This document shows, one piece after another, positions 17,063 to 18,346 of a stretch of 23,008 bases of DNA. Location of the stretch: positions 1-23,008 of IMG/VR virus record IMGVR_UViG_3300033463_005627; one strand, given 5' to 3'. The position numbers were made by a program, and so were the translations under genes. Within the stretch, counting starts at the first letter, position 1. The number at the start of each line of letters is the position of its first letter. A model generated the notes under the pieces. That model made no database searches. It was given only the letters and a program-made list of their open reading frames with translations, and was not told where the DNA came from. Source of the DNA: a virus.

Positions 17063-18346
17063 TTATTTAGCACTATTTCTTCTTAGATAATCATGTTCAA
17101 TAGACACCTTGGGATTTCTCCGATAATTATAGATTTTCTCAATCTGAAGAAGAGCGTCTCTAATCGACTTAATCTTTGTCATTTTCCCATAATTTTTGCG
17201 CAGTCTTTTCAGCAGAAATTCGTTATCAATTTCTGGATGATTAAAACAAAATGCAAGAGCAATCTTGAAGTAATCTCCGCGACCGCCAACTTCACTTACG
17301 ATGTTTTTGAACTTCAATTCATATGTAAGAACAGAGGTTGCTCTCTTAACATCATCGGCAGAACATTTAAGTTTACCACTTCTAATAATTTCGGCATCGG
17401 CAGCTGTGATTGATCCAGAGCCAGTAACTGCGTGATAAACATTGGTAAACCCGACGTCCTCAAATCTGCGATACAACTCCATGAAATTGCGATAGTCGTT
17501 TGAAGTTTTTGCCAAACGTGCAATATGGTTCATGTTTGAATCTGCAAACTGAATAGTGTTAGTTTTGGAAGCAAAACCACTCTTGTCAACAGTGGTCACA
17601 TTGGTATTTTTCTTGGATTTATTACTGTTTATTCTTTCCTTGTATATCTTGGACTTGGCATTTATTTCACTTACAGCTTGATTAAAATCTCCAAAACCGT
17701 GAACACACATATAGTAATTGCTCCACTTATCTTTATCCACAAGCATATATCCTTCTTTGTGCATCCACGGAACAACATCTTCATTTTCATTCATATATCT
17801 ATGAGTAAAATGATCATTTCCTTTGCTAAACACTTTTGATTTATCATTGCTATATAAATCGTCCGTTATCGTCATAAAGTGACCGATGACTTTGTCTTCT
17901 ACGGTTTCGATATACGAAAGAATAACTTGCGGTCTTTTATGCTCCGCACTTCTATCCTTTACTTTAACACCATATATCATTTCATCACTCATCATCTCTT
18001 CTAAGTAGTTCATTTTTTCGATCTCCTCTTCTGTGTATTTAAACCCTTCCGATCTTGGCGCACCGCCATAAACCTAATTGTAATATTTTCTATTACGAAC
18101 AACGTCAAGTTTTTGAGTTATCTTTTGTTCTTGCTTATATAGTTCTGCTTCAGTTTTACACACTTTAAGTATTTTTTTCTTAAAATTCTATCTGCCATAT
18201 AACTTAAGCGCTTTCAAAAATGCCGTTCCACTGCCTAAGTAGTCATCTTCTTCTATTGCGCAATGGCAAGTTCTTCTACCAACATATTCCATATTGTTAA
18301 TAAGATTTGTAGTACAATAAATGTAACGATTAGTTATTTCTTTCAT
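17063..18346 (-). CDS. Free-standing GIY-YIG (Seg-like) homing endonuclease with two in-frame TAG codons (18188..18190 and 18074..18076)
   Basis: ATG at 18346 with AAGGAG 6 nt upstream. The N-terminal 52 aa, 'MKEITNRYIYCTTNLINNMEYVGRRTCHCAIEEDDYLGSGTAFLKALKLYGR', carry the GIY...YVG...R..H and YLGSG...KLYG motifs. After the first TAG the frame continues 'NFKKKILKVCKTEAELYKQEQKITQKLDVVRNRKYYN', the Seg-type '-NF..K.IL......EL' block. After the second TAG it runs straight into the 316-aa ORF 17063..18013 in the same frame. Confidence 0.7.

Follow-up and report, generated by a model that had tools for sequence, protein, structure and literature searches.

A free-standing GIY-YIG endonuclease gene with in-frame TAG codons, and a putative amber gate on its synthesis, in a phage that appears to be TAG-recoded

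Introduction

The IMG/VR virus record IMGVR_UViG_3300033463_005627, analysed here over 23,008 nucleotides (nt; positions 1 to 23,008, hereafter the window), carries on its minus strand at 17063..18346 a GIY-YIG nuclease sequence that is interrupted by two in-frame TAG codons and then runs into an open reading frame (ORF) of 316 amino acids (aa). The locus raises the question of whether these are the remains of a nuclease gene lying in front of an unrelated one, or a single gene whose amber codons are read and, in the latter case, what the codons do there. We consider it highly probable, on the comparisons described below, that the region encodes an amber-gated 427-aa free-standing Seg-type endonuclease of a TAG-reading phage.

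The mechanism itself is not new. Phages with recoded stop codons have been described, among them a case in which the intron endonuclease of an early gene is preferentially recoded; gating by recoding has been proposed for lysis genes and one intron endonuclease of TGA-recoded phages, and the nucleotide-metabolism/replication module of recoded phages was found to be only patchily recoded (Borges et al., bioRxiv 10.1101/2021.08.26.457843). The novelty of the idea, which an earlier sequence-only reading of this DNA had put forward, is thus lost to that work. Code-15 phages with their own tRNA(CUA) include Lak, crAss-like and Jade/Sapphire/Topaz-type clades (bioRxiv 10.1101/2021.08.26.457843; Peters et al., PMC9523058; jumbo phage survey PMC13037316), and proteomics has validated code 15 in phages. 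What is added here is the 427-aa gene model, a family-wide restriction of TAG to the nuclease domain, this positional restriction being a new detail relative to published recoding, and a possible second start.

A Single Frame Interrupted by TAG

From an ATG at 18346, preceded at a distance of 5 nt by the Shine-Dalgarno (SD) motif AAGGAG (18352..18357, minus strand), a single frame can be followed to the TAA at 17065..17063, which yields a complete gene of 427 sense codons, two of them TAG, plus the stop. The same SD motif precedes the start in the related lineages L005, L001, and L006. The first TAG (codon 53, 18188..18190, minus strand) stands between YGR and NFKK and precedes the catalytic Glu and Asn, while the second (codon 91, 18074..18076, minus strand) immediately follows the catalytic Asn90; 52 codons lie before the first TAG, 37 between the two, and 20 from the second to the ATG at 18013. 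Read on the reverse complement, the order is MKEITNRYIYCTTNLINNMEYVGRR...LKLYGR, TAG, NFKKKILKVCKTEAELYKQEQKITQKLDVVRNRKYYN, TAG, VYGGAPRSEGFKYTEEEIEK, M(18013)NYLEE..., and the product is laid out as a Seg-type GIY-YIG nuclease domain, a linker, a beta-rich domain, and a helical domain. The sequence-only reading had placed the start, both TAGs, and the ORF 18013..17063 in one frame, and was right in every coordinate.

It had also argued that the TAGs, together with a third one in a second homing endonuclease gene, are hard to explain as coincident nonsense mutations, and the counts bear this out. In-frame stops inside the gene are exclusively TAG, the third was found at 13386..13384 in the gene 13620..12697, and three of the four in-frame TAGs among the window's 35 minus-strand genes fall in its two endonuclease genes (Fisher p = 0.0046). 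Sequencing error as the source of the TAGs was rejected, because independent assemblies from other samples share TAG at the same codons (L005 at both, L001 at the first, L006 at the second). We regard 18346..17063 as one intact gene, judged by its sequence, and neither as a pseudogene nor as two genes. For annotation, translation table 15 and a single 427-aa protein are the appropriate call for this region; standard gene callers have left at least six truncated fragments of this gene, 287–334 aa long, in the databases.

The Nuclease Domain

The predicted GIY-YIG catalytic domain covers residues 8–91 (18074..18325, minus strand) and is delimited by PF19835, an I-TevI profile match, and tblastn. 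The homology check on the read-through translation, as the sequence-only reading had proposed, returned homing endonuclease matches across both TAGs. With TAG translated as Q, the Pfam family SegE_GIY-YIG (PF19835) scores 35.5 bits (cut-off 25) over residues 8–91, corresponding to profile positions 19–121 of 123, and with X at the TAGs in the full-length query 24.5 bits, slightly below the cut-off; the orthologues of L001 and L002 reach 32.6 and 31.8 bits. PHROG 314 ("homing endonuclease") matches the read-through product at 1.5e-19. Its envelope extends to read-through residue 249, which we did not count as homology, since a query with the 316-aa part gives no support for it.

A profile of 17 family members matches the I-TevI catalytic domain 1LN0 (E 0.0015, residues 4–93), and Y10, Y21, E73, and N90, invariant in all 17, correspond to Y6, Y17, E75, and N90 of I-TevI; an equivalent of the Arg (R24/R25) is plausible, the alignment being ambiguous at this point. 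In tblastn searches of cultured T4-like phages, the first 140–170 residues alone match, with 30–35% identity to genes annotated as segA, segC, or segD. We assign the predicted product to the GIY-YIG superfamily, with a SegE-type domain, and its position between genes, with a presence that varies among related genomes, classes it as a putative free-standing Seg-like element. DNA cleavage and homing would be the activities expected of such a protein.

Conservation of the Reading Frame in Relatives

Protein searches with the read-through product returned database matches to the 316-aa part alone, with close relatives all beginning at MNYLEE, because standard gene callers stop at TAG. DNA was hence read for four related lineages, namely L005, L001, L006-8, and L002-4, with 86, 68, 59, and 42% aa identity to the window, respectively. 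These lineages share the locus, in which the gene lies between an 811-aa protein with a major-vault-protein (MVP) shoulder domain and a 62-aa gene, followed by a NAD-dependent ligase. In the window, the immediate neighbors are a 63-aa gene (18555..18364) on one side and the 62-aa gene (17028..16840) on the other.

The survey of relatives that the sequence-only reading had called for showed the same gene in the same frame, with TAG or a sense codon at the two sites. We found the GIY-YIG part and the approximately 315-aa part in one frame in all five lineages of the window's clade (42–86% aa identity), with TAG at six codon positions (3, 4, 53, 56, 91, and 107/109) and no TAA, TGA, or frameshift in the gene of any of the five. 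Codon 53 is TAG in the window, L005, and L001, TCG (Ser) in L006, CAT (His) in L002, and E, D, N, K, H, Q, or Y in more distant homologs. In turn, codon 91 is TAG in the window, L005, and L006, ATG in L001, ATT in L002, and I, V, L, or C in distant homologs. Each of the two TAGs is kept in three lineages across a synonymous divergence (dS) of about 1, and the replacements are never CAA or CAG.

For pairs that include the window, as well as for L001–L006, the ratio of nonsynonymous to synonymous divergence (dN/dS, Nei-Gojobori) is 0.03–0.16 for the segment between the TAGs (codons 54–90) and for the linker (codons 92–111), and it is equal in the flanking segments, with dS of 0.4–1.0. As dN/dS is as low as in the flanks, the segment between the TAGs and the linker are evidently translated in this frame, and the 20 codons from TAG 91 to the ATG at 18013 are likewise conserved as protein.

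Homologs of 420–440 aa with the GIY-YIG plus 316-aa architecture have been deposited as single proteins. Four of them (P0015, P0017, P0018, and P0020) were considered as uninterrupted standard-code versions, an idea that was dropped when the DNA of P0018, from L020, turned out to have been translated with code 15: codons 30 and 45 are TAG in this DNA, against Q in the deposited protein, so that its depositor had already used this code.

Inheritance of the gene appears to be vertical inside the window's own clade. The 205-kb IMG/VR contig L010 has the slot filled by other genes and holds no homolog of the gene. In IMG/VR, we found two distant relatives of the neighboring 811-aa gene only, with the endonuclease gene in neither, and a megablast of 12000..21200 against 50,697 deposited phage genomes gave no match.

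How TAG Is Read in This Phage

A gene for a suppressor tRNA with anticodon CUA lies at 10185..10277 on the minus strand (ARAGORN; Rfam tRNA, 58.9 bits), 7 kb downstream of the endonuclease gene and on the same strand. Its L002 ortholog (11952..12041) has diverged in all four stems (acceptor, D, anticodon, and T) by compensatory changes, with the CUA retained; no tRNA(CUA) was found in 20.7 kb of L001. The variable region, 21–22 nt in the window and L002, forms a 3-bp stem, a 7-nt loop, and a 3' tail and is conserved in sequence between the two lineages. The acceptor end (A1-U72, G2, G3-C70, G73) resembles the identity set of E. coli tRNA-Gln.

The count of TAG codons that the sequence-only reading had suggested fits with the presence of this tRNA. 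The window's 35 minus-strand genes end in TAA (20) or TGA (15) and none in TAG, an outcome with a probability of 0.003 were TAG 15% of stops, and out of frame, TAG occurs 89 and 121 times in the two other frames of these genes. A gene of the family in L016 ends ...K-TAG-AGG-TGA, i.e., with TGA one codon after TAG. In L001, a nucleoside deoxyribosyltransferase homolog and its neighbor gene contain six TAGs, which align with window/L002 residues Q/Q, Q/Q, Q/R, Q/Q, E/E, and E/E; in these two ordinary genes, TAG thus faces Gln in the window copy at four of six sites and Glu at two. L020 has nine TAGs across five genes in 5,818 codons. The other genes of the window belong to nucleotide metabolism and replication (ligase, ThyA, ThyX-like, deoxyribosyltransferase, ribonucleotide reductase, dUTPase, and DNA methylase).

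We take the window phage, which is probably large and comes from rumen samples, to be TAG-recoded with a code-15-like code, as judged from codon usage and the tRNA gene, and it should be treated as such. The tRNA(CUA) is the likely decoder of the TAG codons. Glutamine is the most probable candidate for the amino acid inserted, because the L001 TAGs align mostly with Gln and the same is seen in published code-15 phages.

Just upstream of the tRNA(CUA) gene, the window (10319..10399, minus strand), L002 (11822..11887), and L019 (3909..3974) have a small ORF that is preceded by an SD and contains an in-frame TAG. Its products read MWHKYMICCRGDGG-TAG-VNARRGLRTGR in the window and MRLFYWIYCRGDGG-TAG-IDARRG in L002, the TAG lies in the 3' arm of a conserved hairpin, and the conserved blocks GAGATGAAAGCTCG and AATGAGAAAGGCGTGATTAA follow the small ORF and reach the 5' end of the tRNA. 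The small ORF, available in two lineages, could be a leader that senses suppression, or the stretch could simply be conserved for processing or as a promoter. When the conserved block was sought as an exact pattern, IMG/VR gave nothing and the JGI metagenomes one near-copy of L002.

Position of the TAG Codons Across 11 Lineages

We next consider the family as a whole, in a census of 11 lineages read at the DNA level that includes six distant ones (L011, L013, L014, L015, L016, and L020). The distant members have one or two in-frame TAGs each, at new or partly shared sites within the N-terminal ~110 codons, and those of L013–L016 and L020 reside in differing gene neighborhoods. Upstream of the conserved internal Met (1,221 codons over the 11 lineages), we counted 20 TAG against 18 CAA + CAG, whereas downstream of it (3,414 codons) there are 0 TAG against 70 CAA + CAG. 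The TAG-bearing region is the first 26% of the gene, that is, the N-terminal nuclease quarter. With each lineage contributing a single event, an all-upstream outcome has a probability of 4e-7 under a uniform model, 1e-5 if Gln codons set the weights, and 2e-6 if the weights come from codons one mutation away from TAG. In each of the 11 lineages, at least one TAG precedes codon 60 and with it the catalytic Glu73 and Asn90 of a potentially toxic nuclease; in five lineages, TAG occurs within codons 3–4, behind good ribosome-binding sites.

This N-terminal restriction fits selection for an amber gate on nuclease synthesis. Under the standard code of the host, the ribosome would stop at codon 53 and release a 52-residue fragment that lacks Glu73 and Asn90, while the phage-encoded tRNA(CUA) would decode TAG and allow the full 427-aa nuclease to be made. 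The TAGs would act as a translational gate because the full-length nuclease needs working amber suppression, and it would be produced once suppression works. The two options left by the sequence-only reading, that TAG is translated or that the endonuclease is kept silent unless the suppressor is expressed, then amount to a single mechanism seen from two angles. Both the moment at which the suppressor acts and the selective advantage of a gate are inferred. The family offers unusually clean comparative evidence that recoded stops are positioned by selection and not merely tolerated.

Alternative Explanations

One alternative, a decaying GIY-YIG pseudogene upstream of an unrelated functional 316-aa gene, mirrors the way standard gene callers split the region, with the entries of close relatives starting at MNYLEE, and it draws on the fact that the 316-aa part by itself matches no endonuclease family. 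We rejected it on dN/dS and the exclusive use of TAG and give it hardly any credence: 11 lineages keep the frame with no interruption other than TAG, the segments taken to be dead show a dN/dS of about 0.1, there is no variation at the catalytic residues, the stretch from TAG 91 to the ATG is conserved as protein, and the two-part architecture recurs in unrelated genomic contexts. A short pseudogene plus an unrelated downstream gene in relatives, which the sequence-only reading had named as the scenario that would speak against it, is contradicted by the one frame kept there. More credible, yet still rather improbable, is that the TAGs have no regulatory role and are ordinary sense codons that drifted by chance into a fast-evolving selfish gene. 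TAGs do occur in ordinary genes of relatives (the six in two L001 genes and the nine across five L020 genes), and those of the endonuclease sit at poorly conserved, surface-like sites. However, drift does not account for the confinement of 20 out of 20 TAGs to the first 26% of the gene (P <= 1e-5 under the uniform, Gln-weighted, and mutational-neighbor nulls), and it leaves unexplained the 20 versus 18 and 0 versus 70 ratios of TAG to CAA + CAG, the five lineages with TAG in codons 3–4, and the retention of TAG 53 and TAG 91 in three lineages each across dS of about 1 with no swap for CAA or CAG. Decoding of TAG as an amino acid other than Gln is a further alternative, which we hold to be unlikely. 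Long variable arms mark bacterial tRNA-Ser, -Leu, and -Tyr, which makes these three the candidates in view of the 21–22-nt variable region of the window and L002 tRNAs; codon 91 is hydrophobic in all homologs, and Ser is found at codon 53 in one lineage. Against this, the TAGs in ordinary genes never align with Ser, Leu, or Tyr (0/6, versus Gln 4/6 and Glu 2/6), and the extra region of the tRNA folds into a 3-bp stem only, unlike class II arms. Phages that differ in code from their host have been reported with TAG-to-Gln and TGA-to-Trp reassignments only (Borges et al., bioRxiv 10.1101/2021.08.26.457843).

A number of points weigh against a gated, glutamine-reading gene. The Gln assignment draws on only six informative TAG sites, all in L001; the TAGs of the endonuclease gene itself face K, E, S, H, M, or I, and never a Gln codon; codon 91, with I, V, L, or M in all homologs, is an odd site for Gln; and a tRNA variable region of 22 nt is atypical of tRNA-Gln, which would allow another amino acid. 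Neither the window nor the related loci contain a structural module, and no late genes or release factors were seen. As to position, the distant members were found through intact C-terminal ORFs, an ascertainment that could hide C-terminal TAGs; two fragmentary hits (L018 and L017) give no sign of a C-terminal TAG, L018 being cut by a contig end and L017 offering just 168 nt of upstream sequence, which bears no resemblance to the family. Finally, the L020 endonuclease is not clearly richer in TAG than its neighbors (two of the nine TAGs in 5,818 codons).

A Possible Internal Start

An extension of the amber gate is that the locus makes two products, a 316-aa one from an internal SD and ATG under the standard code and the 427-aa one only under suppression; we regard this as possible, although not as the favored outcome. 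The candidate second start (18011..18028, minus strand) consists of GAGGAG (18028..18023), a spacer of 9 nt, which is inside the 5–10 nt seen for the window's other genes, and the ATG at 18013..18011. The string GAA GAG GAG ATY GAA AAA ATG shows no synonymous change in four lineages, its three Glu codons included, while dS is about 1 elsewhere, and dS is lowest in the linker. Met is found at this position in 9 of 11 lineages, an SD-like motif lies 5–9 nt before the ATG in 7 of 10, and none of the 11 has a TAG downstream of the internal Met. L002 keeps the motif as TAGGAG, with its TAG inside the motif and 12 nt before the ATG, an arrangement that would favor termination followed by re-initiation. 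On the other hand, a start codon and an SD are both missing at this point in L013 (ATA) and L016 (GCG), the AGGAGG of L014 abuts the ATG with zero spacer, the purine-rich motif may merely encode a conserved Glu-rich linker, and the benefit of stopping before the catalytic residues accounts equally well for the crowding of TAGs at the N-terminus.

Use of the start at 18013 is a tentative proposal, and we lean against it. If used, it would yield a nuclease-free 316-aa protein without suppression, and this short form might cover or mark the target site, or serve as a regulator of the long form. A two-isoform endonuclease controlled by the code switch, with a harmless DNA-targeting protein under the host code and an active nuclease after the switch to the phage code, is likewise less likely than not; were it true, selection would confine amber codons to the nuclease domain, often to its first four codons, and the TAG-free downstream 316 codons would sit behind a conserved internal ribosome-binding site.

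The C-terminal 316-aa Part

The C-terminal half of the protein was previously undescribed. Searches with the 316-aa part alone in Pfam, PHROGs, and NCBIfam found nothing, and an exhaustive hidden Markov model (HMM) search with its profile recovered 356 relatives. Those of 400–440 aa have the GIY-YIG plus 316-aa architecture as a single product, while many of approximately 265 aa match the last ~150 residues only and carry a ParB/GmrSD_N-like DGQxR head. AlphaFold2 models of the 316-aa part reached a confidence (pLDDT) of 60.8 with a 5-sequence alignment and 87.7 with a 47-sequence alignment. The latter model shows a beta-rich middle domain (residues 11–134 of the part; 17612..17983, minus strand), a disordered linker, and a helical domain (residues 160–316; 17066..17536, minus strand). 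The helical domain is also delimited by the HMM search and by fold matches in BFVD, namely A0A516KX02 (E 1.8e-4) and A0A6J5KVL7 ("ParB/Sulfiredoxin"); a PDB fold search with the model gave no convincing match. We presume the helical domain to be a DNA-binding or targeting module.

Comparison With Known Systems

The window resembles code-15 phages in having in-frame TAG in conserved genes, a phage tRNA(CUA), no TAG terminators, and TAG aligned mostly with Gln, as well as patchy recoding in replication and nucleotide-metabolism genes and an origin in animal gut or rumen samples. It differs from them in the unusual 22-nt variable region of its tRNA and in the lack of DNA similarity to deposited phages. 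The gene described here shares with the group I intron endonuclease of TGA-recoded Agate phages (Borges et al.) that it is a homing endonuclease among early-type genes in which recoded stops should block synthesis until suppression sets in. Yet, in Agate phages, the codon is TGA (Trp) and the endonuclease is encoded in an intron, whereas here the codon is TAG, the gene is free-standing, and the positional evidence extends over 11 lineages. The window's second endonuclease (13620..12697) is a closer analog of the published Agate case.

Like SegA–SegG of T4-like phages (PF19835), the protein has an N-terminal SegE-type GIY-YIG domain, 30–35% identical to the segA, segC, and segD products, and like the seg genes, its gene is placed between others, at a site occupied by various mobile genes among relatives. 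Unlike Seg proteins, it is about twice as long, its C-terminal 316 residues have no counterpart there or in any cultured phage, and seg genes have no in-frame stops. The catalytic fold and residues are those of I-TevI from the T4 td intron, the DNA-binding part differs, and the gene is not in an intron. Synthesis of I-TevI is also delayed to late infection, by means of a sequestered ribosome-binding site; the amber gate would be a functional analog of this delay, with a stop codon and a suppressor tRNA in place of an RNA structure. Phage ParB/sulfiredoxin-like proteins of ~250–275 aa (A0A6J5KVL7, P0034, P0035, and P0043) share the ~150-residue C-terminal helical domain, but they have a ParB/GmrSD_N-like DGQxR head instead of GIY-YIG and lack the beta-rich middle domain. 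The putative amber gate would extend the code-switch timing idea, so far applied to lysis genes and one intron endonuclease, to a free-standing endonuclease family, and with one gene, two TAGs, and one tRNA, it makes a simple test system.

Other Endonucleases and Recoded Loci

The second GIY-YIG endonuclease gene of the window (12697..13620, minus strand) is I-TevI-like and has 307 codons, one of which is the TAG at 13386..13384; its product matches PHROG 7168 ("homing endonuclease") at 3.8e-37, across the TAG. Unlike the gene at 17063..18346, which the sequence-only reading called free-standing, this one lies in a group-I-intron-like insertion of ~1,206 nt (12544..13749, minus strand) that splits a Thy1/ThyX-like gene. 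Residues 1–66 of the latter are encoded at 13947..13750 and residues 67–204 at 12543..12130 (flanks 13750..13947 and 12109..12543), and the gene is uninterrupted in L002 and L019. A U closes the 5' exon and a G the insertion, which is the boundary pattern of group I introns, and the arrangement recalls the T4 td intron with I-TevI. An Rfam search of 12400..14000 detected no group I intron model and returned a chance-level hairpin-ribozyme match (E 0.22).

In L002 (~12077..12510; L019 4165..4600), an ORF for an HNH endonuclease, which represents a third endonuclease type with TAG codons, stands directly downstream of the tRNA(CUA) gene. It has two in-frame TAGs, reads MKRIYSISD-TAG-DFIELVKNNT-TAG-PINIAR..., and is absent from the window. 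A conserved 78-aa gene (window 8857..9093, minus strand; L001 17217..17453; L002 13393..13632) has TAG as its third codon in the window (GTG AAA TAG) and L001 (ATG AAA TAG) and at codons 4 and 8 in L002; a TAG right after the start is also the pattern in five lineages of the endonuclease family. For ribonucleotide reductase, the window has an intact gene (5868..8135, 755 aa); in L001 (18157..20715) and L002 (14344..15985), a LAGLIDADG-containing ORF of 264–279 aa, possibly an intein or an intron endonuclease, breaks the gene after ~150 residues.

The slot of the endonuclease gene in L010 (17283..18929; IMGVR_UViG_3300021387_000118, 205 kb) holds a 548-aa protein, in which an Arg-rich stretch and an HNH motif (CxxC...HH...CxxCH) can be made out by eye and which, judged in the same way, looks IscB-like or RuvC/HNH-like; no TAG recoding is visible in this region of L010. 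The 811-aa protein (18678..21113, minus strand) contains the major-vault-protein "shoulder" domain PF11978 (4.6e-16) and is conserved beside the endonuclease locus throughout the relatives, IMG/VR contigs of 66 and 205 kb among them. At the left end of the window, a 411-aa tyrosine recombinase of the phage integrase family (996..2231, minus strand) is found beside a plus-strand ORF (10..579) with a weakly endolysin-like C-terminus (PHROG 20388, 4.2e-05), and the strand switch at this end suggests a module boundary.

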